From an uncultured Anaerolineales bacterium (lineage in GTDB: Bacteria; Planctomycetota; Phycisphaerae; FEN-1346): a stretch of DNA of 15,054 bases. The position numbers and the translations under genes are program-made. The first letter of the stretch is position 1; each line of letters opens with the position of its first letter. Shown piece by piece: positions 1 through 14,549 of this stretch. The notes beneath the pieces were generated by a model, which ran no database searches, was not told where the DNA came from, and saw only the letters and a program-made list of their open reading frames with translations. The DNA is taken from contig CAYGWP010000511.1 of the NCBI GenBank assembly GCA_964353455.1, positions 1 to 15,054 of the forward strand. The letters are read 5' to 3'.

Positions 1-1307
1 ACGGGTTTCGGCGACGGCGTGGCTAGCGCTGGCTTTACCTCAACCGGTTGCGGCGCGGGGGGCTTGGGCGTCGCGGGCGGTGGACGGCCTGCCGACGGTG
101 TACCGGCAACCTGAGAGGGCGCGAGGGCGGGTCCGCCGACAACGGGCGCAGTGTGCGAGCGCGGCAACGGCGGCGCGGGAGCCGGAGAGGGTGCGGGAGG
201 CACGGGCGCGGCTGGCGCCTTGGCGTCCGGCGTCCTCTTCTCGGATGGCGTAACAGGCCCGGAGGTAGGAGTGCTCAACGCCCAGTACACGACAAAGCCT
301 ATGACCACGAAGGCCGCAAGGCTGATGCCGGCGGCCATGGCTCCGTAGCGGCGGACATCGGTGGCCTCTGGCGCCCCGGCCTCGGCCGGCGGGAGTTTCG
401 TCGGTGCCGCCTCCACCGGCAAGAGCGCAGCGCACGTCGCGGGACGCTTGCGCGGGTCTTTCTCCAAACCGGCCATCAAGGCATCCACAACCGCCCCGCC
501 GCGCTCGGGCCGGGCGGCAGGCACGTGCTCGATCTGGTGCGGAATCTCGCCGCGGTGGAAGGGCGGGTTGCCTGTCAGGCACTCGTACATGGTGGCGGCA
601 AGGCTATAGACGTCCTGGGCGGTGGCGGGAGCGTCGCCGCGCAACTGTTCGGGAGACATATACGGCAGCGTGCCGCTGGTCACCTTGCCCGTGGTGCGGG
701 TGTAGGAGTCGCGCATCTCGCGGGCTATGCCGAAGTCGGTGACGAGGGGCGTGCCGTCGGCGGCGATGAGGATATTGGAGGGCTTCAAGTCGCGGTGGAT
801 GACCTTCTTGGAGTGGGCGAAATCTATCGCCTCGGCGACGGGCCGGAAGAGGCGGAGGACCTCATCTTCGGGCAGCGTGCCGCGCTCAGAGAGAACTTCC
901 TCAAGCGTGCGGCCATCGACGTAGTCCATCACCAGGAAGACGCCGTCGGCCGTCTCCTCGAACGACCGCAGCGTGACGATGTGCGGGTGCGAGAGTTGCA
1001 TGGCCAGCAGGGCCTCTTGCTTGAGGTTCCTGACGGCCCGCGGGTTTCGGGCGAGGACGGCGGCAGGCATCTTGACGGCGACGGGGCGGTCGTCGAGTTT
1101 CCGGTCCGCGGCCAGATAGACCGTGCCCATCGCGCCGCGCCCCAGTTCGCGGATAATGCGGTATCGGCCGGCGAGGATCGTCTCGCCCTTCAGTGTGGGG
1201 GCGGAGTCGAGGGTGTCGCCCGCGTCGCGGCCCGCTGCGTCCTGCGCGCGCTGCGTCTCGCCGAGGTCCAGGTCGTCGAGGTCGTCGTTATGGTTAGCGC
1301 CGGGCAT
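1..1307 (-). CDS. Hanks-type Ser/Thr protein kinase, partial. It reads N-terminal kinase domain, one TM helix, then a Pro-rich extracytoplasmic tail. The C-terminus runs off the left edge of the window.
   Basis: ATG at 1307..1305. Manual minus-strand translation gives MPGANHNDDLDDLDLGETQRAQDAAGRDAGDTLDSAPTLKGETILAGRYRIIRELGRGAMGTVYLAADRKL...VAVK, with a Gly-rich loop and the VAVK lysine. The catalytic loop AIDFAHSKKVIHRDLKPSNI is encoded around 784-843, followed by DFGIARE and an SPE motif. A predicted TM follows (AGISLAAFVVIGFVVYWAL, ~positions 250-310) and then a P/A-rich sequence. I checked every in-frame codon from 1307 down to position 3 and found no stop. The gene is absent from the ORF track, presumably because it has no stop inside the window. 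Confidence 0.85.
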   Translation of the reverse strand, partial: MPGANHNDDLDDLDLGETQRAQDAAGRDAGDTLDSAPTLKGETILAGRYRIIRELGRGAMGTVYLAADRKLDDRPVAVKMPAAVLARNPRAVRNLKQEALLAMQLSHPHIVTLRSFEETADGVFLVMDYVDGRTLEEVLSERGTLPEDEVLRLFRPVAEAIDFAHSKKVIHRDLKPSNILIAADGTPLVTDFGIAREMRDSYTRTTGKVTSGTLPYMSPEQLRGDAPATAQDVYSLAATMYECLTGNPPFHRGEIPHQIEHVPAARPERGGAVVDALMAGLEKDPRKRPATCAALLPVEAAPTKLPPAEAGAPEATDVRRYGAMAAGISLAAFVVIGFVVYWALSTPTSGPVTPSEKRTPDAKAPAAPVPPAPSPAPAPPLPRSHTAPVVGGPALAPSQVAGTPSAGRPPPATPKPPAPQPVEVKPALATPSPKP

Positions 1308-1334
1308 AGTTGGTCAAGCCCACCCCTCACCCTA

Positions 1335-1357
1335 CCCTCTCCCGCAAGGGGAGAGGG
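1335..1357. repeat. Palindromic repeat family B, copy 1: CCCTCTCCC-GCAA-GGGGAGAGGG, a 9-10 bp stem with a 4-nt loop.
   Basis: An exact inverted repeat seen directly in the sequence. It lies in the 119-nt spacer between the coiled-coil gene stop (1427) and the kinase start (1307). On the plus strand the loop reads GCAA. Confidence 0.8.
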
Positions 1358-1426
1358 ATGAAACGGCCAGCCACGGCGAGATTCTTCGGTCGCCGCGGCG
1401 ACCTCAGAATGACAGACTCACGCCGG

Positions 1427-2041
1427 CTATTCGTACTCGGTCTCAAGTTGCTTCAGGCGGTCCTGGGTTTCCTTCGAGAGGCCGGGGGCGGACTTCTCCT
1501 TGTCGGTCCCCTCCATCTCGCCCAGGCGCTGGTCGATGTCAATCGCCTCGCGCTCTTCCTCCTTGAACGTCTCCTTCATCATATCGCGGGTGGCGCGAGA
1601 CTGGGTTTCGAGGACCTCGAACTCCTCCTGCGCCTCGATGGCCACGGTATCGACCTCATCCTCGCTGGCCCCGCGTTCGCGCGCGGCCTTGATCTCGCCG
1701 ATCTTCGACAGCACCGCCGAGACCTGCCGGATGTTGCGCGAGATGATCCGGTGCCGCTCAAGGACGCGGTCGATCTCCTCGAAGGTCCGCTCGATCTCCT
1801 CAGCAATGACCTTGCGTGCAGAGCCTTTGGTCTTCTCGAACTCCTCTTTCTTCTTGAGCGCCCGCGTCTCAAGGCCGTGTATCTCCTCCTTGATTTCCTC
1901 CTCGCGGTCGTGGTTGGCGGCCTTGGCCCCGATGAGTCGGGCCTTGAGGTCCTCAAGGCGCTTGACGTCCGAAAGCCCCAGGCCCACCTTCTCGGCCAGG
2001 CGGCTGATGACGCTGCGAAGTCCCGCTGGAATCTCGGCCAT
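1427..2041 (-). CDS. Highly charged coiled-coil protein of 204 aa. A PspA/IM30 or ESCRT-III-like membrane-remodelling role is possible but unverified.
   Basis: ATG at 2041..2039 is preceded by GGGAGAGGAA (reverse complement of 2048-2057) with a ~6-nt spacer. The start lies 3 nt after the TAA stop (2045-2047) of the upstream peptidase gene, which suggests translational coupling. The protein is E/K/R/I-rich with heptad-like periodicity and no Cys or Trp. It does not look like an R/P/S-rich shadow ORF. It lacks the canonical PspA N-terminal amphipathic helix, so the family is unresolved. Confidence 0.75.
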   Translation of the reverse strand: MAEIPAGLRSVISRLAEKVGLGLSDVKRLEDLKARLIGAKAANHDREEEIKEEIHGLETRALKKKEEFEKTKGSARKVIAEEIERTFEEIDRVLERHRIISRNIRQVSAVLSKIGEIKAARERGASEDEVDTVAIEAQEEFEVLETQSRATRDMMKETFKEEEREAIDIDQRLGEMEGTDKEKSAPGLSKETQDRLKQLETEYE

Positions 2042-2044
2042 GTG

Positions 2045-4441
2045 TTATTCCTCTCCCTCTTTGAGGCGGCTCGCAAGCCGCTTCGTGACCACGCCCGTTG
2101 CATAGACCTGTGCGGCCCCAAATATGATGCCGCCTATGGTAATCGGAGTGCCGTTCACTCCCAACTGTAAAAGTTGCGGGACCACGGCTGCGGCGGCGGC
2201 AACCGCCACGCCGCCGGCGCACGTGCGGGCCACCTTCGAGGCCGTGCTGGGACCGGCGATGCGTATGCCGCCCTCGCCCATGCGCTTGTCGATCGCCAGG
2301 TGTCCGTCGCGCGTCCGGTAGATGCGGTATCCGCCGCGCCCCTGCATTGCCGCAAAGGCGTCGCGGATGGCGCTGCGGCGGTAGCCGGTCTCGCGCTTGA
2401 CGAGTTCCAGGTGCACGTTGCCGCCGTAGTGCGAATCCAGAAGGGCATCGACCTCGGTCTTGATGACCGAGATGCGGTGCTGCCGGGTCTCGGGCACAAG
2501 GCGGTCGAGGAAATCGGCCAGGCTCACGCGGTCGGCAAAGCGCGGCGGCTTACGGACCTGCCATCCGCCCTCCCCTTCGGGCGACGAGCAGACCACCCAA
2601 TGGTCGCCCCCCGCCACGCCGCGCACCGCGCTTTCCCACGCCACGGGCGCGGCCAGCGTGTAGAACGTAAAACGCGGGGCGGCGATGCTCTCGGCCTGCC
2701 GCCACTTCTCGTAGAGCGACCTCGCGAGGTCCACGAGTTCCGCGCTAGGAGTCGGCACGGCGGGGGCTTTGTCTTTCGCCATCACCAGCGGCGTGATGTG
2801 GGCCGCAACCACGTGCACGTCGGCCGAGAGGCCGCGGACGGTATAGACCCGCATCGCGCTGGTGGCGGCAAGTCGCTCCTGGAAATCTGCCGCCCACTTC
2901 AGGCCCGCCGGCACTCCCGCCCGGCCGCGCAGGGCCGAGAGCAGCCGGTCCGTCAGGTCCGCCGGCGGCGAGACATTGCGGATCTTCGGCTCGAACGGCA
3001 GATACGACCAGAACTTCGGGGGATTCACCTCCGGGAACGGCTGCCCCGTGGCGGTCGTCATGTTCTCATCAATGGCCGCAAGGAACCGCTGCTTGTGTGC
3101 TGCGGCGGCCGAGACGGCAGCGCGGAATTCATCCGGCCAGTCGCCCTGCGCGGGAAAGTACGCGGCCGCCTGCGCATCGGGGCTCCACGTGAAACCCATC
3201 CCTGCGAAGCGGCGGCGGTTCGCGGGCGTGTCTTCCATGATGCGGTCCGGGGCGTCGGGCGCGGCGAGGACGGCCGTGCCTGCGGGGAGGAGGCGGCCTT
3301 CCAGGTCGCGGGCGGGCTTGGCGAGGCGACGGACCAACTTGTCGATGTCGCCGCCCGACTCGGCGTGCGCGGCCGACGGCCCGACGAGCGGCCCCGTGAA
3401 CGCCTCGACGGCGTACTTCTCGACATAAGCATACGGCATGAGCGCGTGGCCCGGGGCCTCGGGGCAGTCGGTCGCCCAGGCGTCGCCCCAACTGTTGCGG
3501 ACGATGAAGTACCCTCCGCCGGGCACGTCGGCGTCATCGACGAACCCGACGATGCACCAGGCGTGGCCGACGGGCTGCGGCGTCTCGCCGGGCAGCGGCA
3601 TGGTGATCTTGCCGGTCCGGTTCGTCTCGGCCGACTGGTGCCAACTGGCGAAGACGGCCGTTGCGAAGACGACCGGCATTCCGGGGGCCTCGCCGTCGCC
3701 GGCCAGGGCATGCTTGTATTGATCGACATACGAGGGTTCGACCGTGCGGGCCTCGGGCATCCGGAACTGGCGGGCCTCATCGACCGCGCCGTCGGGAGGC
3801 GGACCTTGAGACTCGTTCCCCGTAACGTTCCGCGGATTATAGGGCCACGTGCCCGCCTGGCAGATGCCGTACTCGTTGAACGCGGCCATCGCCGTATGGA
3901 CATACGACCCCGGCCCCTGGACGCCGTCCAACTCCTTGCTCGCCCAGTACAGGAACTGCTCGGAGAGGGCCGCGCCGGGCCCGGCCAGAAATTCCCGCAG
4001 GGCCGTCGAGGCGAAGGCGGTGCACGTCGGCCGCTCGCCCTGGTTCTTGACGGGCGGGAGTTGATGCATGAGGCGGGCCGCCGCCGGGAGCGCCGGGCGC
4101 TTGCCGGCCCCAGGGGCGGGGCGGCGGCGGGCGGGCAACTCCGCGGCGCGCGCAAGCGCCCCCAGGACCTCGGCGTCAATCAGGCACCCCAGCGGACCGC
4201 CCGGCCGGGGGGCGGCGAGCGCGGCAAACCGCGGACCGAGGATCGTCGAGGCCGTCCGGTGCATCGTGCCGGCTGCGCCCGACGGGAACGGCAGGGCCTT
4301 CTCAAGGAGCGCCGGCTCGGCCGCCGCAACCAGGGCCACATATTCCTCGATGCTCTCGATCCAGAGCGACCGGAGGCGCTCGCGGACGGCCGGCGGAAAC
4401 GCCGCCATCCGCTCAAGCGGCGTGTGACCTTCGATTCTCAT
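2045..4441 (-). CDS. Papain-like (MEROPS C1 family) cysteine peptidase domain, fused to a ~400-aa domain of unknown function and a C-terminal hydrophobic TM anchor. 798 aa from the ATG at 4441.
   Basis: The track ORF begins at a GTG at 4486. An in-frame ATG at 4441..4439 is preceded by a perfect AGGAGG (reverse complement of 4449-4454) with a 7-nt spacer, so I take it as the start. The motif PPVKNQGERPTCTAFAS matches the papain oxyanion-hole Gln plus catalytic Cys region (papain: PVKNQGSCGSCWAFS). GHAWCIVGF supplies the catalytic His and YFIVRNSWGDAWA supplies the catalytic Asn with the NSWG motif. This peptidase domain is encoded at ~3330-4020. There is no N-terminal signal peptide. The C-terminus ends in VAVAAAAAVVPQLLQLGVNGTPITIGGIIFGAAQVYATGVV followed by a basic tail, which I read as a tail anchor. 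Confidence 0.85.
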   Translation of the reverse strand: MRIEGHTPLERMAAFPPAVRERLRSLWIESIEEYVALVAAAEPALLEKALPFPSGAAGTMHRTASTILGPRFAALAAPRPGGPLGCLIDAEVLGALARAAELPARRRPAPGAGKRPALPAAARLMHQLPPVKNQGERPTCTAFASTALREFLAGPGAALSEQFLYWASKELDGVQGPGSYVHTAMAAFNEYGICQAGTWPYNPRNVTGNESQGPPPDGAVDEARQFRMPEARTVEPSYVDQYKHALAGDGEAPGMPVVFATAVFASWHQSAETNRTGKITMPLPGETPQPVGHAWCIVGFVDDADVPGGGYFIVRNSWGDAWATDCPEAPGHALMPYAYVEKYAVEAFTGPLVGPSAAHAESGGDIDKLVRRLAKPARDLEGRLLPAGTAVLAAPDAPDRIMEDTPANRRRFAGMGFTWSPDAQAAAYFPAQGDWPDEFRAAVSAAAAHKQRFLAAIDENMTTATGQPFPEVNPPKFWSYLPFEPKIRNVSPPADLTDRLLSALRGRAGVPAGLKWAADFQERLAATSAMRVYTVRGLSADVHVVAAHITPLVMAKDKAPAVPTPSAELVDLARSLYEKWRQAESIAAPRFTFYTLAAPVAWESAVRGVAGGDHWVVCSSPEGEGGWQVRKPPRFADRVSLADFLDRLVPETRQHRISVIKTEVDALLDSHYGGNVHLELVKRETGYRRSAIRDAFAAMQGRGGYRIYRTRDGHLAIDKRMGEGGIRIAGPSTASKVARTCAGGVAVAAAAAVVPQLLQLGVNGTPITIGGIIFGAAQVYATGVVTKRLASRLKEGEE

Positions 4442-4486
4442 CGTGCGGCCTCCTGCGGTCCCGCGCCTCGGCGCGGCACCGTCCAC

Positions 4487-4509
4487 CCCTCTCCCGCAAG
4501 GGGAGAGGG
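4487..4509. repeat. Palindromic repeat family B, copy 2: CCCTCTCCC-GCAA-GGGGAGAGGG.
   Basis: The same 23-mer as copy 1. It sits in the leader between the small ORF stop (4567) and the peptidase ATG (4441), and overlaps the GTG-extended portion of the track ORF. Confidence 0.8.
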
Positions 4510-4528
4510 TTAACGCCGCTGCGGCGCC

Positions 4529-4556
4529 GCGCGGCGGGTCTCCCGACCCGCCGCGC
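4529..4556. repeat. Palindromic repeat family A: GCGCGGCGGGTC-TCCC-GACCCGCCGCGC, a 12-bp stem with a 4-nt loop.
   Basis: A perfect 12-bp inverted repeat. It lies 20 nt from B copy 2, in the leader of the peptidase gene. The loop is the complement of the loop at 7525-7528, so this copy is inverted relative to the copy at 7513-7540. Confidence 0.8.
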
Positions 4557-4566
4557 AGATGTCAAA

Positions 4567-4890
4567 CTACTGAATGCCGAACCGCCGCTTCTGCTCGTCC
4601 GTCAGGAGCGCCCCGTCGGGCGGGCGGCCGGCGTCGGGCTTCTCGAGGGCGGCGGCGCGCTCGCGGCCGACGGCCGACCGCAGCAATTCAAGCATCCGCG
4701 CGAGGCCCGGCTCGCCGAGTTCCAGAAGTCTCCGCAGCCCCTCTCGCCCCTCGGGCGTGGAGGCAAGGGCCAGGGCCTGCTCGGCCGTGCCGACCCACTG
4801 CCCCGCGAGTCGCTCGAGGGACGCGGCATCGAGGCCCACGACGTCGGCAAGCGGATGGTCCCGGCCCGGCTTTTCGCTCTTCGCTCCCAC
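4567..4890 (-). CDS. Small hypothetical protein of 107 aa with a GTG start.
   Basis: GTG at 4890..4888 is preceded by AAGGA (reverse complement of ~4896-4902). It lies 15 nt downstream of the kinase stop (TAA at 4906-4908). The composition is protein-like and Leu/Glu/Ala-rich rather than Arg/Pro/Ser junk. It fills the gap between two well-supported genes. I found no recognisable domain. Confidence 0.45.
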   Translation of the reverse strand: MGAKSEKPGRDHPLADVVGLDAASLERLAGQWVGTAEQALALASTPEGREGLRRLLELGEPGLARMLELLRSAVGRERAAALEKPDAGRPPDGALLTDEQKRRFGIQ

Positions 4891-4905
4891 GGCGGCATCC
4901 TTAAG

Positions 4906-7491
4906 TTATTGCTGCTGAATCTGTCCCACCGGGTTCCCGGCGGCGGTGTTGTCGGCGGCGATACTGGGCGAAGCGCCGCGCCAGAACTCGATGCCGTACC
5001 GTCCGTTTGAGTTGCACTTGTTGCGGCGGAGGGCCGGCGCCGTGCCGTCGCCCGATGCCGCGATGCCGCACGACTTGTTATTGCTGCATGTGTTCCCATC
5101 GGCCGTGCCGCCGGCCCCCTGGGCGAAGCAGATGCCGTGCTGCTCGTTGCCGGAGCAGACGTTGTCCTTCAGGGTCGGCGCGGTGCCGGCGTCGAGGACG
5201 AGGATGCCTGTATCCTTATTTTTGTCGCAGGTGCTGCCCTGTGCGATGCCTGCGGCGCCCTCGCCGAAATAGATGCCGCACTTCAAGTTCTCGGTGCAGA
5301 CGTTGCTCACGAGGCTGGGCGCGGCCCCGGCGCCGGTCACGGCGATGCCGGACCACTGGTTGGCCTTGCAGGTGTTCCCCTGGGCGGTGCCGCCGGCGCG
5401 TTTGCCGTAGGCGATGCCGTGATGTCCTGAGCCGACGGCGATGTTGTCGTTGATGATGGGCGTGGCATCGTCGCCGACGCGGATGCCGTCAAGCGCGCTC
5501 CCCTCCACGAGGCACTCGTGGATGAGGGGGCTGCACGCGCCCGTGATTGAGATGCCGCAGCCTGCGGCGGAGGCGATGCGGCACCGGAAGACTTCAACGG
5601 TGCTCGATACGATTTGGAGCGGGGACGGCCGCGCGGCGGCGCCCGATGCGCCCGCGCCGGCGTGCTGGAGCGTGAGGCCCGTCACGAGTCCGGACGAGCA
5701 GTTCCTCACGAGGAGGACGTCGGCCCGCGAGCCGTCCGAGCGGATGGTGACGCGGTCGTACCCTTCGCCGATGAGCCGCACGCCGTCCTTAAGTATAAGC
5801 GATTCGTCATAAGTTCCGGCATTGATGCGTACGGCGTCGCCGGGGCGGGCGGCATCTATGGCCGCCTGTATGGTCCGGTACTCGCCGGGCACGGCGAGTT
5901 CGGCCGGCCCCAGCAGGGCCTTGACGCGGGCCTGCATCCGGAGGGCCTCGGCGTGGGCCGGGTCGAGGCGGAGGATTTCGTCGATGGCCTTCATGGCGGC
6001 CTCGGCCTTCTCGCGGCCGTCGTTGGCCTTGGCGGCGGCCAGGAGTTTCCCGATCGTGATGCGCCGGTCCGCGGCGTCGCGCATCCGGCGGGCCTCCGCG
6101 TTGGCCGGGTCAACCTTGAGGAGTTCATCGAGTTTGGCGACGGCGGCGGCATCGTCCTTTTCGGACTTGGCGGCCGCCAGGAGTTGTGCGATTTTCTCTT
6201 CGCGTTTCTCGGCCGGGGACTCCTGCTTGGCGACTTCGCGGACCGGGGCGGCCTGCTCGCGGCGCTTGGCGTCGCCGGCGCCGCTGGACAGAAGGCCCTG
6301 GATGGCGGGCCATGCCACGAAGTAGATGCCGCAGGCCGCGCCGCCCAAGACCAGGACAAGCAGCACAAGGACGACCGGCCGGAGGGCGCGGCGTCTCGGC
6401 GCCTCTGGGGCGGCGGAAGACGAAACGGCCGCGTCGGTCAGCGGCAAGCGCGGCGGCTCCGGCTCAAGCGGCATATCGACCGGCACCACGGGCGCCGTGA
6501 CGGCAGCGATCTCGTCGGGCGTCTCGACGACTTCCACGGGCGGCGGGGCCGACGCCAGAAGCCCCACGAGGTCCGCGGCGGAGCGCGGCCGGCGCTCGGG
6601 CGTCTTCGCCAGCGCCCGGTGCAGGGCCGCGTTCATGTGGTCCGCGAGGCCCTGAATGGGGGGCGGCTCGGCATGGAGCAACTGATGCCCGATCGCCCCG
6701 CGGTAGAACGGCGGGTGCCCGGCAAGGCACTCATACAGGGTGGCCGCAAGGGAGTAGATGTCTGACGCCGGCGTCGGGTCCTTGCCGGAGTATTGCTCAG
6801 GCGACATATAAAGAAGGGTTCCGGTGGTCTCGCGGCCGGTTACGCGGGTGACCGAGTCCTTGAGTTCGCGGGCGATGCCGAAGTCGAGGACCTTGGCCGT
6901 GCCGTCGGACGCGACCATGATGTTGGAGGGTTTGACGTCGCGGTGGAGGACCGGCGGCCGCAGGTCGTGTGCGTAGTCGAGTGCGGCGGCCACATGGCGG
7001 GCGATCGGCTCCAGCATCTCCCACGGGAGACGGCGGCCGGGCTGCGCGGCCAGGATCGCCTCGAGCGTGCAGCCGGAGATGAACTCCATCACGAGGAACT
7101 TCGTGTCGGCGTCGGCGTGAAAATCGTGGAGGCGGCAGACGTGCGGGTGCGCGAGGCGCAGGCTGATGGCCGCCTCGCGCTTGAGGCCCGCGACGCTCGG
7201 CTGGTTCCGCGCAAGGACCATCGGCAGGACCTTGACGGCGACCGCGATGCCGAGTTCGCCGTCCTCGGCCTTCCAGACCTCGCCCATGCCGCCGGAGCCG
7301 GCCTTCTCGACGATCTTGTACCGGCCGGCCAGGACCGTGCCGGGCCCGATGGGCTCAGCGACAACGGTGTCGCCGTCGAGCGATTCGCCGCCGGTCGCCC
7401 GCCGCGGGGTCTGCGTGCTGAGGTCCGCCCCGCACGCGGTGCAGAACCGCACGCCGTCCGAGTTTTCCTGTCCGCACTTGCCGCAGAACAT
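4906..7491 (-). CDS. Multidomain Hanks-type Ser/Thr protein kinase. Order: N-terminal zinc ribbon, kinase domain, single TM helix, two TPR-like repeats, then a C-terminal right-handed parallel beta-helix (PbH1-type repeats).
   Basis: ATG at 7491..7489 gives MFCGKCGQENSDGVRFCTACG, a zinc ribbon. The track ORF extends to an upstream ATG at 7554. I reject that start because the extension would translate a palindromic repeat that also occurs intergenically at 4529-4556. Kinase motifs are GSGGMGEVWKA, AVKVL, HRDVKPSNIM, DFGIARE and GTLLYMSPEQ, encoded at ~6640-7330. The TM helix is RPVVLVLLVLVLGGAACGIYFVAWP at ~6330-6400. Two ~45-aa A/K/E-rich repeats lie at ~5930-6200. Repeating ~23-aa G-x-A-x-G-N-x-C units are encoded at 4906-5880. 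Confidence 0.9.
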   Translation of the reverse strand: MFCGKCGQENSDGVRFCTACGADLSTQTPRRATGGESLDGDTVVAEPIGPGTVLAGRYKIVEKAGSGGMGEVWKAEDGELGIAVAVKVLPMVLARNQPSVAGLKREAAISLRLAHPHVCRLHDFHADADTKFLVMEFISGCTLEAILAAQPGRRLPWEMLEPIARHVAAALDYAHDLRPPVLHRDVKPSNIMVASDGTAKVLDFGIARELKDSVTRVTGRETTGTLLYMSPEQYSGKDPTPASDIYSLAATLYECLAGHPPFYRGAIGHQLLHAEPPPIQGLADHMNAALHRALAKTPERRPRSAADLVGLLASAPPPVEVVETPDEIAAVTAPVVPVDMPLEPEPPRLPLTDAAVSSSAAPEAPRRRALRPVVLVLLVLVLGGAACGIYFVAWPAIQGLLSSGAGDAKRREQAAPVREVAKQESPAEKREEKIAQLLAAAKSEKDDAAAVAKLDELLKVDPANAEARRMRDAADRRITIGKLLAAAKANDGREKAEAAMKAIDEILRLDPAHAEALRMQARVKALLGPAELAVPGEYRTIQAAIDAARPGDAVRINAGTYDESLILKDGVRLIGEGYDRVTIRSDGSRADVLLVRNCSSGLVTGLTLQHAGAGASGAAARPSPLQIVSSTVEVFRCRIASAAGCGISITGACSPLIHECLVEGSALDGIRVGDDATPIINDNIAVGSGHHGIAYGKRAGGTAQGNTCKANQWSGIAVTGAGAAPSLVSNVCTENLKCGIYFGEGAAGIAQGSTCDKNKDTGILVLDAGTAPTLKDNVCSGNEQHGICFAQGAGGTADGNTCSNNKSCGIAASGDGTAPALRRNKCNSNGRYGIEFWRGASPSIAADNTAAGNPVGQIQQQ
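5935..6191 (-). repeat. Tandem duplication of ~110-120 nt, two copies about 147 nt apart and ~70% identical, inside the kinase gene. It encodes two TPR-like A/K/E-rich repeats.
   Basis: Copy 1 at 5935-6054 (CATCCGGAGGGCCTCGGCGTGGGCCGGGTCGAGGCGGAGGATTTCGTCGATGGC...) and copy 2 at 6082-6191 (CATCCGGCGGGCCTCCGCGTTGGCCGGGTCAACCTTGAGGAGTTCATCGAGTTTGGC...) are visibly similar. The matching protein repeats are IAQLLAAAKSEKDDAAAVAKLDELLKVDPANAEARRM and IGKLLAAAKANDGREKAEAAMKAIDEILRLDPAHAEALRM. Confidence 0.55.
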
Positions 7492-7512
7492 CAGTTGTCG
7501 GCCCTTACCCCG

Positions 7513-7540
7513 GCGCGGCGGGTCGGGAGACCCGCCGCGC
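7513..7540. repeat. Palindromic repeat family A: GCGCGGCGGGTC-GGGA-GACCCGCCGCGC.
   Basis: The stem is identical to 4529-4556, in the opposite orientation. It lies 22 nt upstream of the kinase ATG (7491). Confidence 0.8.
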
Positions 7541-7575
7541 AAAGCATGAAGCAATGTTGTCGAGAGGCTCCGTCA

Positions 7576-7600: not shown

Positions 7601-7625
7601 CACTCAAACGGCCCCCTCACCCCGG

Positions 7626-7648
7626 CCCTCTCCCGCGAGGGGAGAGGG
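7626..7648. repeat. Palindromic repeat family B, copy 3: CCCTCTCCC-GCGA-GGGGAGAGGG.
   Basis: The stem is identical to copies 1 and 2. The loop is GCGA instead of GCAA, so the orientation is the same. It lies in the 207-nt spacer between the SPFH gene stop (7699) and the kinase ATG (7491). Confidence 0.8.
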
Positions 7649-7658
7649 AGACAACACG

Positions 7659-7676
7659 CGGCGGACAAGTCCGCCG
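7659..7676. repeat. Stem-loop CGGCGGA-CAAG-TCCGCCG, a 7-8 bp stem.
   Basis: An inverted repeat 23 nt downstream, on the minus strand, of the SPFH gene stop. It may be a terminator or processing hairpin, but no U-tract follows it. Confidence 0.4.
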
Positions 7677-7698
7677 GCTAAATGTTAAGTGTGAGTCA

Positions 7699-9525
7699 TC
7701 ATTTCTGCGGCTTGCCGCACTGGGAGCAGAAGGCGCCGTCGCCCTCGAGTTGGGCGTTGCAGTGTCTGCAACACGGGACGTTGATGACGACGGGCGGCCC
7801 CATGCCGCCACCGCCGGTCACGACCGTTTGAGCGGCATGGTGCGGCGCCTGGGCGCGTGTGACGGCCACGCCGCCCATCTCGTGCATGGCGACGCGTGCG
7901 ACGCGCTCTGTCCGGTTCGCCTCGTTCTGGTAGATGGAACGGATCTCGGCCAGATGTTCCTTGAGTATCCGCGCCTCGCCGACCGCCACCTGCCCCTCGG
8001 CCTCGTACTTCTTGGCGAGCGCTGCGGCGGCATCGGGGGAGGCGGCAGAGAGCACGGCCAGTATCTGTTCGGGGGTCATGTTCTGCTGGGCGCGGAGTTC
8101 CTCCAGGCGTGCGATGCGGTCTGCGGCCGGGCCATCGACGATTGAAAGGAGGGCTGCGGCGGTGGCCTTGCCGCGGGCCTCGAGGGTCCTGGCCTCGACC
8201 TCCTGTGCGTCGAGGGCGCGTTTGTGGTCGAGTTCCTCGACCTCCTCGCGGAGGCGGAGCGCCTCCTCGGCCTGGCGGATGTCCTCGATGTTTTCGAGGC
8301 GCTCGAGTTCCAGTTGGATTTTGCGTTTCTCGGCATCAGTCTTAGCGGTTTCGAGTTCGCGGCGGAGTTGTCGTGTGTGCCCCTCGTCGCGCTGCCGCTC
8401 CTCGGAGATGAGTTCTTCCCAGGCCCTGTCCCGGCGGGCCTTGTCGGAGATGGTTTCGATTTCGATCCGCCGCAGGAGTCCCTCGCGGTCGCGCTCGAAG
8501 CGGAATCGCTCCTTCAGGCGTTCCATCTCGTCTTCGCGGATGACCTGCTTGATGCCGAGTTCATGCTCGGTCTGGCGGACGAAGTCCTCGAAGTCCTTCT
8601 CGGTCTTGAAGGCGTGCATCTTGTCTTCGGTGAGGTTTTCGCGCAGCCGCTGGCCGAGGCGTGTGCGTGCGATCGTAAGTTCGGCCTCCTCCTCAGCGAG
8701 CCTCAGTTCGGCCTTCTCGCGGCGGATCTTCTCGTACGCCTCGCCGAAGAAGCGGATGAACCTGAGTTGCACCAGTTCCAGGCCCAGCCGCGTCAGGGTC
8801 CGCGCAATCGTCTCGCGGAGGTCCTGCTCGATGCGGTTGCGGATCTCAAGTTTCGTAAAGAGGTCCACGGTCGGGTACTGGTGGACGATGCCCGCGAGGA
8901 GCATCTGTACTTCGCCGGCCATCTGCGATTCGAGGTCCGCCAGTTCGACGCGGTTCCGGCCCTTGAAGAGGTTGACGAACATGGCGTCGGGGTCGCGTGC
9001 GCGGAAGACGAGGCGCTCGGCGGTGCCGACCTCCTGGCCGTCTTCGGTCCAGAGGTCGCCGTTCTCGACGTCGATGATGACGTCGCCGGCATCGCAGATG
9101 ATGGCGCTGGCGGGCTCGTGGACGAGGAAGTTGCGGAGTTTGCTGAGGAAGCCGCCCATGTCGTAGCGTCCCTCGCCGAGTTCGCCCTTGAACTCGCCGT
9201 TCTGGAAGAGGAGCGCCCGCGTTCCGTGCTCGACGATGAGGGGCTTGGTGAGCCAGCCCTGGATGTCCTGGTCATCGACGCGGACGGCGAAGTCTTCGGG
9301 CCTGCGCGACCAGCGGTCCTCGATGAGGATGGGCTTGCTCATGATCGCCAGGTCGGCCCCGCACCGCCAGCAGAACTTCGAGGCGGTGCTGACCTCGGCC
9401 TTGCAAGCCCCGCACATGGCCAGGCCCCTGGGGGCGTTTCCGCCGCAGTGCGGGCAGAACCGCGAACCCTTGCGGACCCGCATGTTGCACTCCGGGTTCC
9501 TGCACTTGTCGGTGAAGATTCCCAT
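7699..9525 (-). CDS. SPFH (band-7/flotillin-like) domain protein with two tandem N-terminal zinc ribbons, a long charged coiled coil and a C-terminal zinc ribbon. 608 aa.
   Basis: ATG at 9525..9523 has a strong RBS, AAGGAG with a 6-nt spacer (reverse complement of 9532-9537). The N-terminus carries CRNPECNMRVRKGSRFCPHCG and CGACKAEVSTASKFCWRCG. The central region matches SPFH-core features (...LIVEHGTRALLFQNGEFKGELGEGRYDM..., ...VDLFTKLEIRNRIEQDLRETIARTLTRLGLELVQLRFIRF...), followed by an E/R/A-rich heptad region typical of flotillin/HflK tails. The C-terminus is CCRHCNAQLEGDGAFCSQCG. Confidence 0.8.
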   Translation of the reverse strand: MGIFTDKCRNPECNMRVRKGSRFCPHCGGNAPRGLAMCGACKAEVSTASKFCWRCGADLAIMSKPILIEDRWSRRPEDFAVRVDDQDIQGWLTKPLIVEHGTRALLFQNGEFKGELGEGRYDMGGFLSKLRNFLVHEPASAIICDAGDVIIDVENGDLWTEDGQEVGTAERLVFRARDPDAMFVNLFKGRNRVELADLESQMAGEVQMLLAGIVHQYPTVDLFTKLEIRNRIEQDLRETIARTLTRLGLELVQLRFIRFFGEAYEKIRREKAELRLAEEEAELTIARTRLGQRLRENLTEDKMHAFKTEKDFEDFVRQTEHELGIKQVIREDEMERLKERFRFERDREGLLRRIEIETISDKARRDRAWEELISEERQRDEGHTRQLRRELETAKTDAEKRKIQLELERLENIEDIRQAEEALRLREEVEELDHKRALDAQEVEARTLEARGKATAAALLSIVDGPAADRIARLEELRAQQNMTPEQILAVLSAASPDAAAALAKKYEAEGQVAVGEARILKEHLAEIRSIYQNEANRTERVARVAMHEMGGVAVTRAQAPHHAAQTVVTGGGGMGPPVVINVPCCRHCNAQLEGDGAFCSQCGKPQK

Positions 9526-9558: not shown

Positions 9559-10242
9559 CTACAGCGGCCGCGCGGCGTGCCGGACCGCGCGCGTCAGGCC
9601 GCGCAATATGAGCAGGATGATGATCAGCGCCAGGAGCGCCCCGATCAGCAGCAGCGGGTAGCGCCAGAACTCCATGATGGCATCGCTCCAGTGGATGTAC
9701 GCCTCGCCGACCACCGGGCCGCTCGACCAGAGTATCTGGCCGGTCTCAACGTCGGCCATGCGGACGGTCATCTTGACGTAGCCGCGTATGCTCCAGAGGT
9801 TGAGGCCCGATTCCCAGATGTCGCCGTACAGGATGGCATCGACGCCCTTGATCTTGCCGAACTTCTGGACCGTGGCGGAGTCCATCACGTCCTCTCGCTT
9901 GACGCCCCACTCGATCTCGGCCAGCAACTTGTCCCACGTCTCATCGAGGCGCGTGAACAGTTTGAACTGGGACTTCGTGAGGGCGGTCTTCATGGCGTTG
10001 GTGGCGTAGAGGTTGTCGGTGTCGCGCCGCAGCGGGATGACCGCCACGTTCGGCACGTCGGCGAATCGTTTGGGGTCTTCGGCCCGCCTTGCAGCCAGGC
10101 TGTCCTGGACCTGTGCAACGGCGACATCCATGGCCCGCTGTACGGTGTCTTCCTCGCTGGCGGCGGCCGGCGGCGCCGATGCCAGGACCGTCACGAAGAG
10201 TCCGAGGAGGATTGCGGCAGAAAGTCGTGCATGCGTTCTCAT
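9559..10242 (-). CDS. Exported protein of 227 aa with a CsgG/LpoB-like fold. It has an N-terminal signal peptide and a C-terminal TM anchor.
   Basis: ATG at 10242..10240 is preceded by GGGAGA with a 7-nt spacer. The signal peptide is MRTHARLSAAILLGLFVTVLASAPPAAAS. The core VAVIPL...LFTRLDETWDKLLAEIEW...GKIKGVDAILYGDIWES...YVKMTVRMADVETGQILWS follows the CsgG/LpoB/TolB-N pattern (buried [IV]-x-[IV]-x-P, a G-x-D-x-[IL]-x-G strand, and a terminal V-x-L-[IV]-D-x-x-TG-x-[IV]-x-W-S). The C-terminal hydrophobic stretch is LLLIGALLALIIILLILRGL. Confidence 0.7.
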   Translation of the reverse strand: MRTHARLSAAILLGLFVTVLASAPPAAASEEDTVQRAMDVAVAQVQDSLAARRAEDPKRFADVPNVAVIPLRRDTDNLYATNAMKTALTKSQFKLFTRLDETWDKLLAEIEWGVKREDVMDSATVQKFGKIKGVDAILYGDIWESGLNLWSIRGYVKMTVRMADVETGQILWSSGPVVGEAYIHWSDAIMEFWRYPLLLIGALLALIIILLILRGLTRAVRHAARPL

Positions 10243-11341: not shown

Positions 11342-12604
11342 TCACGTCCTGGAAATCACCAGCCCGGAGTCCTTGGCCTCATATAGCGTGAATTCCCCGC
11401 CGCGGGCAAGTTCGCCGAACGCGGCGCGGACCCAACTCGCGTCGGCCCGGCAGGACCGGACCGCACCGGCCAGCGTCACGGCGTTCTTGCGCTGGACGGC
11501 CTCGCGGATCTCCTCGATGCACCGGGCCAACTCCGCGGCATACCGGGCAGGGGCGACCAGCGGCCAGAACGGCCAGAGGCGCTTGTCGGATTCATCCATG
11601 ATGACCCGGTCGGCCGCAAGGTCCCCGAGCGCCAGGGCGGCCCGCCGGTCGCGGAACGCCTTCGCGTGATGCCGCTTGGCGACCACGGCCGCCGCATCCT
11701 CTGTCCAGCCCGTCGGCGAGGCCACGACGACGACGCGGAAACCTTCCTTGCCCTCGGTCCCGACGATTAAGGAATTCAGATATGCACTAAGTTCTGATTC
11801 GCCGACCGGCTCGACGTCGTACCCCTGCGTGCGGAGCGTCTCGGGCCGCGCCAGAAACCGCGCCTCAAGCACCAGGCACCCCTTGGGCTTTCCCCAGCCG
11901 CCGGTGCGAAGGGTGAAGCGGCTGGCGCGGTTCAGGGGCCCGTGGCCGTCGTCGCGCTGGGGCGATTCGATCTCGTGCGCCACGCGGGCGTCGCGCAGCG
12001 GAATCGCCAGACCTGACAGCGGGTCCGGCAGTTCGTCGATCTCGTCGAGCCGCTGGCCGAACGACCGGAGGAACGTCTCCTCCGCGAGGCGCGCCTCGGC
12101 CGCCGTCGCGACGGGCCGGCCTTCGGCACGCAGCCGCGCGACCGTCTGCTCGACCGTTTCCCTCGCGGCCGGCCTCTCGACCGGCGCGGGGGCAATGGAA
12201 GCAGCCGAGCCCGCCGCGGGAGCGGCGGGGCATATTTCAGTCGATTCCTCCGGCTCTTCCGCCGGGTGCTCTTCGCAAACCCTGATTTTCCGTATCGACC
12301 AGCAGGCCTGGCAGATCTCGCCGCCGCACTCCTCGCATGGGCCGCCGACCGACAATTCGCTCACCATCGCCTTGCCACAGGCCCCGCACCGCAGGCCCTC
12401 CAGGGCCGTCAGGCCGCGCTTGGCCTCGGTGGCGACCCGCTCCTTCTGCTTCTCGAAGTAGGCGTCGAGGTCCTCGGCCCGGACGCGGTAGATGCGACCG
12501 ATCTTGCCGGCGGGTATCTCGCCGCCGCGGACCAGGCGATAGATGGTCTTGTACTCGACCCCAAGCCGGTCCGCCGCTTCTTCCAGTGTCAGATAGTCAG
12601 CCAT
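11342..12604 (-). CDS. Putative DNA-binding protein of 420 aa. It has an N-terminal excisionase/MerR-type helix-turn-helix, a zinc ribbon, and a C-terminal domain of unknown function.
   Basis: ATG at 12604..12602. The N-terminus MADYLTLEEAADRLGVEYKTIYRLVRGGEIPAGKIGRIYRVRAEDLDAYFE is a textbook excisionase-family HTH_17 signature. The zinc ribbon is CGACGK...CEECGGEICQAC at ~12300-12390. The C-terminal ~270 aa is unrecognised. An AT-rich intergenic island lies upstream. Confidence 0.8.
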   Translation of the reverse strand: MADYLTLEEAADRLGVEYKTIYRLVRGGEIPAGKIGRIYRVRAEDLDAYFEKQKERVATEAKRGLTALEGLRCGACGKAMVSELSVGGPCEECGGEICQACWSIRKIRVCEEHPAEEPEESTEICPAAPAAGSAASIAPAPVERPAARETVEQTVARLRAEGRPVATAAEARLAEETFLRSFGQRLDEIDELPDPLSGLAIPLRDARVAHEIESPQRDDGHGPLNRASRFTLRTGGWGKPKGCLVLEARFLARPETLRTQGYDVEPVGESELSAYLNSLIVGTEGKEGFRVVVVASPTGWTEDAAAVVAKRHHAKAFRDRRAALALGDLAADRVIMDESDKRLWPFWPLVAPARYAAELARCIEEIREAVQRKNAVTLAGAVRSCRADASWVRAAFGELARGGEFTLYEAKDSGLVISRT

Positions 12605-12795
12605 GACAGGATTCCGTAGAGATGTCCCCTTTCCAATTGCCGTGGAGTCTGTCGCAATGAGATACGCAAGTCAAGGACTTTTCTTGCCTCACTTACCCGG
12701 AATATCCCTCTCTTTCCCGAGATTTTCATAAGTCGTTGTCGCAAAAGGAATTATGGCCCTCGATATGAGGCACAAACTGCCCCCATGCCAACACG

Positions 12796-12813
12796 CGGTC
12801 GCCAAGGCGACCG
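12796..12813 (-). terminator. Hairpin CGGTCGCC-AA-GGCGACCG downstream of the FHA gene. Possibly an intrinsic terminator-like structure without a U-tract.
   Basis: A perfect 8-bp inverted repeat 24 nt after the FHA gene stop (TGA at 12839..12837). It lies at the edge of the only AT-rich island in the window. Confidence 0.35.
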
Positions 12814-12836
12814 GCTAAATGGGGGCTTCGGGGGTT

Positions 12837-14549
12837 TCACCGCCCGATCTGCTGAAACTCCTTCACGGTGCCGCCCATGTTGCCGAAGGTAACCTTCATG
12901 CCGAGCGCCAGGGGGCACGCGCAGCCACGAGGCACGCCGATGCCGTCGGCCGTCACGCCCTTGTCCTGGACGAGGCTTTCGAGCCAGAACTGGCCGCCAA
13001 GGCGGATGATGCGGACGTGCGCGCGGCGGAGGCCCGCCGTCGGGTCGCGCACCAGCAGTTCGCTGCCTTGCCCGCGGCCGACGTTGGCCCAGCGATAGAC
13101 GACGAGGTACTTCTCATCCTCGGCCAGGTTATCGACGCGCCGGATCATGAGCGACCGTAGTTTCAGGCGCGCCGCCGTCTGCCACAGATCGTCGGCGGAA
13201 CCCAGGGCGCTGTAACGCTTCGGGTCCAATCCCGGCTGGTCTTCAGCATCCCTGAACGGAATCAGCCGCAGGCGCAGTGCCTTCGCCACGTCCACGACGG
13301 ACGGCTGGTCAAGCGGCACCTTGACCTCGCCGCGCACGGCATGGCCGTTAAGTTCCGTGCCGTTCCTGGTGTCCTGGTCGGCGAGGAAAAGGCCGTCGGA
13401 CCGAAGCGACAGGACACAGTGCGGCCCCTTGTGGCCGCTGATCAGAAAAGACAACTTGTCGTTCTCCGGGTTCCTCGGCAGGACGACCAGCGAGATGTCG
13501 CTATTGGATCGGCTGCGGCCCAGGCGAATCTCGGGGATGCCGAGGAGGCACACGCGGGGGGCGTCGGGCTCGGCGGACGAGATGATGGCGGCCCGGTCCA
13601 TCGGCGCGCGCGGCGGCACATGGCCCCTGACGACGCGGACGGGCCGGCCTTCCTTGTCGCGCTGGCGGCGGGTCTCATCCTCGTCGAATGCCAGCGACAG
13701 CGCCGTCCACTGGTCGCTGAACGACCGGTGCATGATCTGGTTCACGTCCTTGACGAGGCCCTCGGAGATGACCTGCTTGGCCTCCTGGCTGACGCTGCTG
13801 CCGAAGATCTTGCTCCCGCCCTCGGGGCGGACGCTCTGGTCGATCTGGACAACGAGGCTCTGGAGGTTCTCAGGCCGCGCCAGCACCATGAGCACCGCCT
13901 GGGCGGTCCAGCAGAACGGCTCGCCGCCGAGTTCGTACTTCAGGGCAAGGTCCACAAGCATCTCGCCGGGAATATCGAGCCTCAACTGCATCCGGTGCCG
14001 CGCATCCCTGTGCGCGGCCAGACGCATCGTACACTCTTGCACCGCGCCGACGAGTTGCCCCGTCACCCTCAGGCAAACGTTGTTCAGGGCCTGGTCGGTC
14101 CCGTTGACGAAACGGAAGTCAAGGACGGCGGCCATATTTTCCATGTAGAAATGGTTATCATTGATTTCGATCGCGACGGCGGGCGGGCGGCCCTCGTCGT
14201 CGCAGACATCGGCCTCGCCGGCCGGGGCAGAGAGCGCCTCCTGCTCCTCGGTCCGGGCCTCCTCCTGCGTCAGACGCAGGTGGTCCCGCTTCTCATCCAG
14301 CGCCCGGCGGTCGTGACCGTCCAGGACGCCGTCGGACCACCGCTGGAGGACTTCCTGGCGGTACTCGGCCACGGCCTTGGCCTTGTCGCGGGGAATCGTC
14401 TCGGCCTGCTCCATAAGATCGCCCGCCGGAGCCGCCGCAGGCGCCCCGGCCGCCGCAGGCGCTGCCGCACGCAGCGCCCCGCCGCACGCGGCGCAGAACG
14501 ACTCCTTGTCGTCGTAGGCCTCCGACCCGCACTTCTCGCAACGTTTCAT
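12837..14549 (-). CDS. Zinc-ribbon protein of 570 aa with two FHA (forkhead-associated, phospho-Thr-binding) domains.
   Basis: ATG at 14549..14547 is preceded by AAGGGGG with a 6-nt spacer. The N-terminus is MKRCEKCGSEAYDDKESFCAACG, a zinc ribbon. FHA domain 1 is LGRSRSNSDISLVVLPRNPENDKLSFLISGHKGPHCVLSLRSDGLFLADQDTRNGTELNGHAV, with the G-R...S..H..L....NGT..NG hallmarks, at ~13340-13570. A second FHA-like region lies at the C-terminus, ~12840-13150 (AHVRIIRLGGQFWLESLVQDKGVTADG...). Confidence 0.85.
   Translation of the reverse strand: MKRCEKCGSEAYDDKESFCAACGGALRAAAPAAAGAPAAAPAGDLMEQAETIPRDKAKAVAEYRQEVLQRWSDGVLDGHDRRALDEKRDHLRLTQEEARTEEQEALSAPAGEADVCDDEGRPPAVAIEINDNHFYMENMAAVLDFRFVNGTDQALNNVCLRVTGQLVGAVQECTMRLAAHRDARHRMQLRLDIPGEMLVDLALKYELGGEPFCWTAQAVLMVLARPENLQSLVVQIDQSVRPEGGSKIFGSSVSQEAKQVISEGLVKDVNQIMHRSFSDQWTALSLAFDEDETRRQRDKEGRPVRVVRGHVPPRAPMDRAAIISSAEPDAPRVCLLGIPEIRLGRSRSNSDISLVVLPRNPENDKLSFLISGHKGPHCVLSLRSDGLFLADQDTRNGTELNGHAVRGEVKVPLDQPSVVDVAKALRLRLIPFRDAEDQPGLDPKRYSALGSADDLWQTAARLKLRSLMIRRVDNLAEDEKYLVVYRWANVGRGQGSELLVRDPTAGLRRAHVRIIRLGGQFWLESLVQDKGVTADGIGVPRGCACPLALGMKVTFGNMGGTVKEFQQIGR

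Follow-up and report, generated by a model that had tools for sequence, protein, structure and literature searches.

A putative membrane-tethered papain-family peptidase and its conserved gene cassette in an uncultured Phycisphaerae bacterium

Papain-family (C1) peptidases are known from textbooks as secreted or lysosomal enzymes, and a bacterial gene for one that carries no export signal and ends in a membrane-anchoring segment raises the question of where such an enzyme works, how it is held in check and on what it acts. The gene lies in a stretch of 15,054 nucleotides from an uncultured Anaerolineales bacterium (GTDB lineage Bacteria; Planctomycetota; Phycisphaerae; FEN-1346), positions 1 to 15,054 of contig CAYGWP010000511.1 in GenBank assembly GCA_964353455.1, which is referred to throughout as the window. 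An initial annotation, made from the letters alone, had described the product as a cytoplasmic papain-like peptidase fused to a tail-anchored domain and tightly linked to a coiled-coil gene, and had suggested that it could be the effector or processing enzyme of its module, a role that we find plausible. That observation is largely real and fared better than chance, with three corrections, which concern the pro-domain, the membrane hairpin and the true conserved partners. [quoted passage not shown]

The peptidase domain and its side of the membrane

The peptidase domain matches the Pfam family PF00112 (Peptidase_C1) with 32.7 bits, the cut-off being 20.7 (E 1e-7, profile positions 13–196 of 220), and its closest sequence in the PDB by phmmer is xylellain (PDB ID: 3OIS; E 1e-9). 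A full-length AlphaFold2 (AF2) model, built from an 87-sequence alignment, has a mean predicted local distance difference test score (pLDDT) of 91.3, with values of 92–98 across the peptidase domain (residues 121–350). Xylellain is also the top Foldseek match to this model (E 3e-14), and the two-lobed papain fold compares to mature papain, cathepsin and Der p 1 with target-normalised TM scores of 0.70–0.76, all of which bears out the papain-like assignment. All 87 sequences, although just 31–52% identical to the query, have Gln134, Cys140, His293, Asn316, Ser317 and Trp318 without exception; the first four follow one another in the C1 order Gln, Cys, His, Asn, and the motifs around them align to those of xylellain. 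The Cys/His/Asn triad described initially is indeed intact, with the Gln in addition, and the protein is apparently a papain-type enzyme that can be predicted to be catalytically competent. Some conflict systems are known to hold inactive enzyme domains (PMC7159879), and the papain fold might by the same token serve as a mere binding scaffold, but a pseudo-protease would hardly be expected to keep Gln, Cys, His, Asn and Ser-Trp in 87 of 87 sequences at such divergence, and we give this explanation very little credence.

Xylellain, from Xylella fastidiosa, and the Legionella protein Lpg2622 (PDB ID: 6A0N) are bacterial papain-family enzymes with the same catalytic motifs, xylellain being the best match in both sequence and fold (TM score about 0.72). 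They differ, however, in that identity is about 21%, in that both lack the N-terminal domain (N-domain), the alpha/beta and winged-helix domains and the hydrophobic hairpin that accompany the peptidase here, and in that they lie outside an operon of the kind described below, with 107-residue, 204-residue, Snf7-like and AAA genes.

The start of the protein, MRIEGHTPL, agrees with the consensus MxxxGxTPL of 86 homologues, for which reason the ATG at 4441, the start chosen in the initial annotation, is the right one; the Shine-Dalgarno-like element upstream (see the table) and the alignment of the homologous N-termini both favour it. An alternative GTG at 4486 would add 15 residues, all of them polar. 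With either start there is no hydrophobic segment before residue 730 (Kyte-Doolittle, 19-residue windows, mean 1.5), so that the claim of a cytoplasmic enzyme without a signal peptide survives a check of the corrected start as well. The position of papain Cys22 is occupied by an invariant Arg137, within the motif QGxRxTC, because of which the first papain disulfide (Cys22–Cys63) cannot form; as judged from the sequence, this loss fits a reducing compartment. The signal peptide, I29 propeptide and conserved disulfides that define a classical secreted C1A zymogen were not found for this peptidase.

The best reading is that the peptidase probably folds and works on the cytoplasmic side, at the face of the inner membrane. 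It could instead be an ordinary exported or periplasmic protease, anchored at its C-terminus, whose true start or signal had been missed, in keeping with the facts that most C1A enzymes are secreted and that the nearest solved relatives, xylellain and Lpg2622, come from pathogens. Such an explanation has to contend not just with the two N-termini that lack hydrophobicity and the disulfide lost to an invariant Arg, but also with a start shared by all 87 homologues that leads into a folded helical domain, with a two-helix hairpin that leaves both ends on one side of the membrane, and with partner proteins that carry no signal peptides, and we consider it highly improbable.

The N-domain and the C-terminal module

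The initial annotation recognised no pro-region or prodomain, and in this it has to be revised. Residues 1–100 form a conserved helical domain at the position of the papain propeptide, which is kept both in long forms of the family of about 800 residues and in short Chloroflexi forms of about 363 residues. It is followed by a linker of low AF2 confidence (residues 100–120), after which comes the motif LPxxxRLMxxLPPVKNQG, the counterpart of the N-terminus of mature papain-like enzymes. The product of the 107-residue gene upstream is a free-standing paralogue of this domain, aligning to it over 88 columns in hhalign (probability 99.1%, E 1.4e-18) and with E 0.001 in pairwise BLASTP. When 24 free and fused copies are aligned together, a single residue does not vary, namely the Gly of a P-G-G-x-L-G motif (Gly85 in the peptidase, Gly93 in the 107-residue protein). 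Residues 1–120 match no Pfam family at E ≤ 1, and hence no propeptide or inhibitor family. A similar arrangement is found in the papain and cathepsin L zymogens and the free propeptide-like inhibitors of MEROPS family I29 (CTLA-2, BCPI and crammer), where, as here, an N-terminal domain exists together with a separately encoded free paralogue; the N-domain itself, however, showed no kinship to I29 by any test run. As modelled, the N-domain is the equivalent of a pro-region, of an unfamiliar type.

The N-domain family (4142–4441 and 4567–4890) contains a stretch of 21 residues, TxEQxVAxAATxxGRxGLxxL, that looks like a single TAL-effector repeat. We rejected a TAL-effector kinship of the family, as the whole-sequence E-value from the PDB profile search is inflated by summation over repeats and single repeats are insignificant, which leaves a likeness of short motifs.

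Beyond the peptidase, the initial annotation placed one unknown domain of about 400 residues, held at the membrane by a single C-terminal transmembrane segment. Modelled alone, residues 351–798 reach a pLDDT of 91.4 and a predicted TM score (pTM) of 0.88, and they make up not one domain but three: an alpha/beta domain, a winged helix and a hydrophobic hairpin. The description as unknown still holds for the alpha/beta domain, which has no Pfam match at E ≤ 1 and no Foldseek match in the PDB at E ≤ 0.001, and in which the 87-sequence alignment reveals no conserved polar residues suggestive of catalysis. A nuclease was considered for its alpha-beta-beta-beta-alpha-beta order and was ruled out, there being no conserved acidic or lysine residues.

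The hydrophobic C-terminal anchor stands as well, though as two helices (residues 734–763 and 769–797) instead of a single one. Hydropathy exceeds 1.5 in both helices in 43 of the 87 homologues, in one helix in 35 and in neither in nine. There are basic residues ahead of the first helix and behind the second, and the protein finishes in a charged end such as INRRAxEEKE. In the model, the segment is a hairpin anchor with both ends predicted to be cytoplasmic, and not a single-pass tail anchor.

A conserved cassette and the role of the protease in it

We found 132 homologues in a large protein database, most of them about 800 residues long and covering most of the query at 33–52% identity, plus one additional homologue that is 95% identical; an exact-sequence look-up gave no record for the window peptidase, and the same goes for P0029. 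The names given to the homologues never go beyond "C1 family peptidase", and PF00112 is present in every listed full-length homologue except one (P0119). Their sources are Planctomycetota, Phycisphaerae, Verrucomicrobiota, Hydrogenedentota, Thermodesulfobacteriota and others, to which a genome scan adds Victivallales and Kapaibacterium. The N-domain belongs to a far broader subfamily, and a relative is encoded in 354 species-representative genomes. The Chloroflexi members are mostly the short forms of about 363 residues, which consist of N-domain and peptidase alone. Plasmids and phages yielded no full-length relative, just peptidase domains of about 30% identity.

Five distant loci (L001 and L003–L006) share one gene order, in which a protein of 107–114 residues, the peptidase and a protein of 197–226 residues are followed later by one of about 216 residues and then an AAA ATPase of about 378. 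For a census over 166 loci we built a hidden Markov model for each part of this cassette. Nearly all long-form loci with enough room have a 107-like gene as the immediate upstream neighbour, often with a 4-nucleotide overlap with the peptidase start. About 20 non-redundant loci, drawn from several phyla, have a member of the 204 family as the immediate downstream neighbour, a 3-nucleotide gap being the commonest spacing. In the window the peptidase stop codon (TAA, 2045–2047) is likewise separated by 3 nucleotides from the ATG of the 204-residue gene (2041), just as first reported, and similarly tight spacing is seen in most homologous loci. Of about 15 loci whose downstream sequence extends for at least 3.7 kb, 13 have the pair of 216-residue protein and AAA ATPase. 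Co-occurrence thus upholds the link to the coiled-coil gene that had been proposed, while the link to the SPFH and kinase partners named alongside it is weak, their homologues being near the peptidase in just one or two other loci and not family-wide; the conserved set is the 107-residue paralogue, the 204-residue protein, the Snf7-like protein and the AAA ATPase. Both the cassette and the protease architecture appear undescribed in the literature that we searched.

The C-terminal module is also found without the protease. An exhaustive phmmer search with the C-terminal 433 residues gave 136 cluster representatives, among which are about 44 fusions of about 800 residues and about 30 proteins of 420–480 residues that correspond to the module alone; all ten of these shorter proteins that we inspected start with Met and have no peptidase. 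In one locus (L167) a module protein of 443 residues is followed after a 3-nucleotide gap by a 204-family gene (E 2.6e-82), a caspase-like C14 peptidase, a Snf7-like protein of 218 residues and an AAA ATPase of 378 residues, and in another (L169) a module protein of 992 residues is followed by a 204-family gene, a Snf7-like gene and an AAA gene. Since modules without a peptidase keep the same operon partners, the protease is best seen as an add-on and the module as the constant part. On the strength of these gene orders, the putative constant core comprises the module and the 204 family together with the Snf7-like protein and the ATPase, and the optional unit is the C1 peptidase with its N-domain and the free 107-residue paralogue.

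The module occurs in further forms. A protein of 706 residues (P0171) has two tandem copies of the middle domain. In the 992-residue protein (P0184; L169, 6001–8979) a region rich in transmembrane segments, with biotin-lipoyl-like and IF2_N-like parts, takes the place of the peptidase, and a separate small biotin-lipoyl protein is encoded just upstream.

These patterns bear on whether the peptidase might be a general housekeeping enzyme, membrane-bound incidentally and with no specific link to its neighbours. Cytoplasmic papain-family peptidases without a signal peptide are well established in bleomycin hydrolase and PepC (subfamily C1B), and the short Chloroflexi forms do occur without the 107 and 204 partners. 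The C1B enzymes, however, are soluble, self-compartmentalising oligomers with no membrane module and no conserved operon partners, whereas here the gene order is strict across phyla, with overlaps or 3-nucleotide gaps, and the fused module keeps its partners when the protease is absent. Moreover, PF00112 is the sole Pfam family that the peptidase matches at E ≤ 0.01, the C1B model remaining unmatched. We therefore regard a housekeeping role as very unlikely.

As to the partner proteins of about 216 residues, PF03357 is a precomputed match on both such genes of a Victivallales locus (L003), a direct scan of a 216-residue protein gave 21.7 bits, under the cut-off of 27.3, and a profile of the family reaches the yeast Snf7 structures (E 2e-4); going by sequence, these partner proteins are probably Snf7 homologues. 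The partner ATPase has one AAA domain with a lid. Its match to Vps4_C reaches 18.7 bits, under the cut-off of 21.3 (a precomputed match in L169 is labelled weak), and its C-terminal part matches p97 with 1e-10 and Vps4/CdvC with 1e-5. A firm assignment as Vps4 was dropped, as the D2 domain of p97/Cdc48 scores far better. The 204-residue protein belongs to a helical family without a Pfam match, for which the PDB profile search returned designed coiled coils alone; its profile retrieves 16 proteins of about 200 residues from the large protein database, none of them with Pfam domains. The C-termini of the 204 family (LSxxTxxRLKxLExE) and of the Snf7-like family (IGEGRxRLKxLxExxK) have a common RLKxL core, which we take to resemble MIM1, the motif by which ESCRT-III tails bind MIT domains.

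From these parts we can sketch how the system might work. The C-terminal module would act as a membrane adaptor, anchoring the protease at the face of the inner membrane and serving ESCRT-III-like filaments of the 204-residue and Snf7-like proteins, whose RLKxLE tails could dock the AAA ATPase. The N-domain, at the place of the papain propeptide, would keep the protease latent, and the free 107-residue paralogue might inhibit it in trans or act as a decoy, in the manner of the free propeptide-like inhibitors of cathepsin L. Docking or cleavage would probably take place at the invariant Leu-Gly of GGxLG, with Leu at P2, since a hydrophobic residue at P2 is what papain-type enzymes chiefly select for. 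Upon a trigger, perhaps from neighbouring kinase and FHA proteins, the protease would cut itself, its tether or its inhibitor and then the co-encoded filament protein, and such cleavage could switch the assembly or turnover of the polymer at the membrane.

Several observations weigh against this proposal. The 204-residue protein has no detectable similarity to Snf7 or PspA (0.3% in hhalign against the Snf7-like family, and none in the PDB profile search). The AAA ATPase is nearest in the PDB to the D2 domain of p97/Cdc48 (E 1e-97), with Vps4/CdvC weaker, and its 75-residue helical N-domain, MIT-like by eye, has a best PDB E-value of 0.3–0.8 and no Pfam MIT match. The hairpin is moderately hydrophobic, the nine homologues noted above falling under the threshold in both helices, and a Verrucomicrobia subclade with peptidases of 830–900 residues has no detectable 204-family gene. 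Lastly, the window, which ends in a kinase gene, contains neither a Snf7-like nor an AAA gene.

The Victivallales locus offers a guide to what may lie further on. There the peptidase is followed by a 197-residue gene, a kinase and then two Snf7 genes and the AAA ATPase, and upstream are homologues of the zinc-ribbon SPFH protein (24% over 476 residues, E 2.5e-18) and the LpoB-like lipoprotein (31%, E 1.4e-20) of the window, along with FHA and kinase genes. Because this locus has the same local order, Snf7-like and AAA genes can be predicted to follow past the left window end. What is most interesting, the proposed Snf7/AAA machine that incorporates a protease, is in part outside the window and rests on synteny. 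In its fullest form the proposal would be of a bacterial ESCRT-like machine, spread horizontally through several phyla, in which the module fills the adaptor role of ESCRT-II or CdvA, the 204-residue protein and a true Snf7 homologue are the two filament proteins and a Cdc48/Vps4-like AAA protein is the ATPase, most versions having a protease and inhibitor paralogue built in, with proteolysis as the switch, which would make it the bacterial equivalent of calpain-7/PalB on ESCRT-III or of CdvB under proteasome control; this wider picture is tentative, and we hold it as possible without expecting it.

Comparison with known systems gives partial precedents. Archaeal and eukaryotic ESCRT systems consist of ESCRT-II or CdvA, ESCRT-III and Vps4, and the related loci similarly pair Snf7-family genes with a single-domain classical AAA ATPase, the C-terminal module of the protease being, like ESCRT-II or CdvA, a membrane-bound protein that contains a winged helix; the present system differs in that its ATPase is nearer to Cdc48 D2 than to Vps4 and in that the 204-residue protein is not detectably ESCRT-III. 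Calpain-7 and fungal PalB/Rim13 act on ESCRT-III (Snf7) platforms, and in Sulfolobus the proteasome removes CdvB. These examples of proteolysis coupled to ESCRT-III polymers and an AAA ATPase are the closest functional analogy, and an analogy only: calpains, cysteine proteases of clan CA as the C1 enzymes are, belong to family C2 and not C1, they are recruited through MIT domains instead of being fused to an adaptor, and the systems are eukaryotic or archaeal. Bacterial operons of a gasdermin and a protease also place a protease beside a membrane-active partner, and an analogy to protease-activated pore-formers had been drawn in the initial annotation; it finds no backing here, since Pfam scans of the window genes and the gene tables of related loci contain no gasdermin-like or other pore-forming partner.

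In the literature, zinc-ribbon SPFH coiled-coil proteins like that of the window have been noted in archaeal ESCRT loci (PMC10936438). A 2025 review describes a Vps4-like ATPase as apparently absent from bacteria (PMC7619361), and a 2024 survey of the phage-shock-protein system reports sporadic bacterial PspA/Snf7 genes beside AAA ATPases and the transfer of Vps4-like ATPases to some bacteria, without using the terms papain or caspase (PMC11237479). An eLife survey of 2020 on conflict systems in multicellular prokaryotes mentions neither ESCRT nor a cytoplasmic C1 peptidase (PMC7159879), and full-text searches of the literature returned nothing relevant that joins papain-like or cysteine proteases with Snf7, Vps4 and bacteria.

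The physiological role may be either the repair of envelope stress or a conflict (phage-defence) response. Many related loci are rich in caspase-like C14 peptidases, FGE-sulfatase and zinc-ribbon proteins, and single ones also have a bAvd gene, an integrase accompanied by an HTH_17 gene, or a DO-GTPase; this gene content favours a conflict flavour. One may accordingly picture the protease as a death or alarm effector, or as an activator, in an island of the anti-phage, abortive-infection type, unleashed on infection so as to break down proteins of the cell or to switch on a partner that disrupts membranes, and with the Snf7-like and AAA proteins as the membrane effector in place of a repair machine. 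The patchy spread over distant phyla at 40–50% identity would suit such an island, as would the variable N-terminal part of the module (a C1 peptidase, nothing, or a biotin-lipoyl-like region), which resembles the swapping of effectors in defence systems. However, NCBIfam and PADLOC scans gave zero matches for the peptidase and the 107- and 204-residue proteins, and PADLOC matched neither the SPFH nor the FHA protein, its hits among the neighbours being generic kinase and helix-turn-helix (HTH) matches; full-length relatives are missing from known plasmids and phages, no pore-forming or nuclease effector was recognised, and the Snf7-like, AAA and SPFH genes of the core are of kinds typical for membrane maintenance. 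We consider a conflict island rather unlikely, and it differs from the regulatory protease that we favour chiefly in physiological role, not in molecular mechanism.

If the latent regulatory protease is right, the locus would present a conserved, cytoplasm-facing and membrane-tethered version of a C1 enzyme, with a new kind of pro-domain that is also encoded by a gene of its own, and with three domains at the C-terminus, one of them without significant similarity to any solved structure. The constant partners, a probable Snf7 homologue and a classical AAA ATPase, matter more than the protease itself. The system could offer a tractable bacterial model of protease-controlled ESCRT-III-like dynamics, a new fold of membrane adaptor and a wider evolutionary range of Snf7-type machinery.

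Other features of the window and of related loci

The features of the peptidase gene and its immediate surroundings are collected in the table. The GC content of the window is 64–74%, and every clear gene is on the minus strand.

Table. Positions of features in the window
Feature	Position	Strand	Basis
Whole gene, 798 residues: N-domain, C1 peptidase, alpha/beta domain, winged helix, hydrophobic hairpin	2045..4441	-	Open reading frame (ORF) list and sequence
N-domain, residues 1-100, helical, at propeptide position	4142..4441	-	pLDDT 87-97; conserved in long and short forms
GGPLG motif, residues 81-85; candidate processing or active-site-docking site	4187..4201	-	Alignments; low-confidence linker next to it
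Papain-family (C1) peptidase domain, residues 113-350	3392..4105	-	Pfam PF00112, PDB phmmer, Foldseek
Gln134 codon (oxyanion hole, papain Gln19)	4040..4042	-	Invariant in 87 sequences
Predicted catalytic Cys140 codon TGC, in PTCTAF	4022..4024	-	Invariant; aligns with xylellain catalytic Cys region
Predicted catalytic His293 codon CAC, in VGHAW	3563..3565	-	Invariant; aligns with xylellain GHA
Asn316 codon AAC, in RNSWG	3494..3496	-	Asn316, Ser317 and Trp318 invariant
Middle alpha/beta domain, residues 365-650, without known relatives	2492..3349	-	
Winged helix domain, residues 653-719	2285..2485	-	
C-terminal hairpin, helices 734-763 and 769-797, plus charged tail	2051..2242	-	AF2 secondary structure, Kyte-Doolittle
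Shine-Dalgarno-like AGGAGG, 7 nucleotides before ATG 4441	4449..4454	-	Read from sequence
Two GC-rich palindromes in the spacer between 107-residue gene and peptidase, 4482-4510 and 4529-4556	4482..4556	.	Repeat search
Upstream 107-residue gene, free-standing N-domain paralogue	4567..4890	-	hhalign
204-residue coiled-coil gene, 3 nucleotides past the peptidase stop, C-terminal RLKQLE motif (MIM1-like)	1427..2041	-	Family downstream in about 20 loci
Ser/Thr kinase gene from ATG 1307, running off the left window end	1..1307	-	Translation

Unlike many relatives, in which the 107-like gene and the peptidase overlap by 4 nucleotides, the window has a spacer of 125 nucleotides between the two, and a scan of 1200–5200 found no sigma-70 promoter or intrinsic terminator above the shuffled background. 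The spacers between the minus-strand genes contain three families of GC-rich palindromes (1330–1358, 4482–4510 and 7621–7649; 4529–4556 and 7513–7540; 7652–7684 and 12789–12821), an example being CCCTCTCCCGCAAGGGGAGAGGG; another element is 28 nucleotides long and occurs in two copies with 100% complementarity. These families resemble REP-type (repetitive extragenic palindromic) or hairpin elements and separate genes that overlap in related loci.

Among the neighbours, the gene at 4906–7554 (minus strand) encodes a zinc ribbon, a Ser/Thr kinase, a TPR-like region and a beta-helix; an internal ATG near 7491 (MFCGKCG...) is its probable start, and the N-terminal extension of the ORF as listed overlaps the palindrome at 7513–7540. 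A direct repeat of 271 nucleotides (534–804 and 6682–6952, 70% identity) reflects the paralogy of its kinase domain with that of the gene at the left window end, the two Ser/Thr kinase domains lying on either side of the cassette. The zinc-ribbon SPFH protein (7699–9525, minus strand, 608 residues) has a double zinc ribbon at the N-terminus and a zinc ribbon at the C-terminus, with an SPFH/Band-7 domain and then a long coiled coil in between, and it is this protein whose homologue lies upstream of the Victivallales peptidase. N-terminal zinc ribbons recur on otherwise unrelated neighbours (12837–14549 and 9559–10242, both minus strand), and the zinc-ribbon neighbours include an FHA protein (PF00498; listed Pfam and NCBIfam matches at residues 342–418 and 488–556) and the LpoB-like lipoprotein, which has a C-terminal transmembrane helix. 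A 420-residue protein (11342–12604, minus strand) contains an HTH_17 domain of the excisionase/MerR type, to which the MADS MAD1 HTH model matches as well, and after it a Cys-rich stretch that resembles a zinc ribbon; in L022 a full-length homologue (25%, E 2.6e-24) has as neighbours a short-form peptidase with its 107-like gene, and an AAA ATPase.

Two of the related loci have neighbours of other kinds. Cystatins are the classical inhibitor family of C1 peptidases, and in L005 (6528–6893 and 5077–6243) a cystatin-family gene (PF00031) is found upstream of the C1 peptidase at a distance of about 3 kb, beside a phage-integrase-like gene and a small HTH_17 gene, a neighbourhood that hints at a mobile island. 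In L001 (14111–14455) a bAvd gene lies just downstream of the cassette, among zinc-ribbon and FGE-sulfatase proteins; bAvd is an accessory protein of diversity-generating retroelements, and such an element may diversify the neighbouring proteins at this locus.

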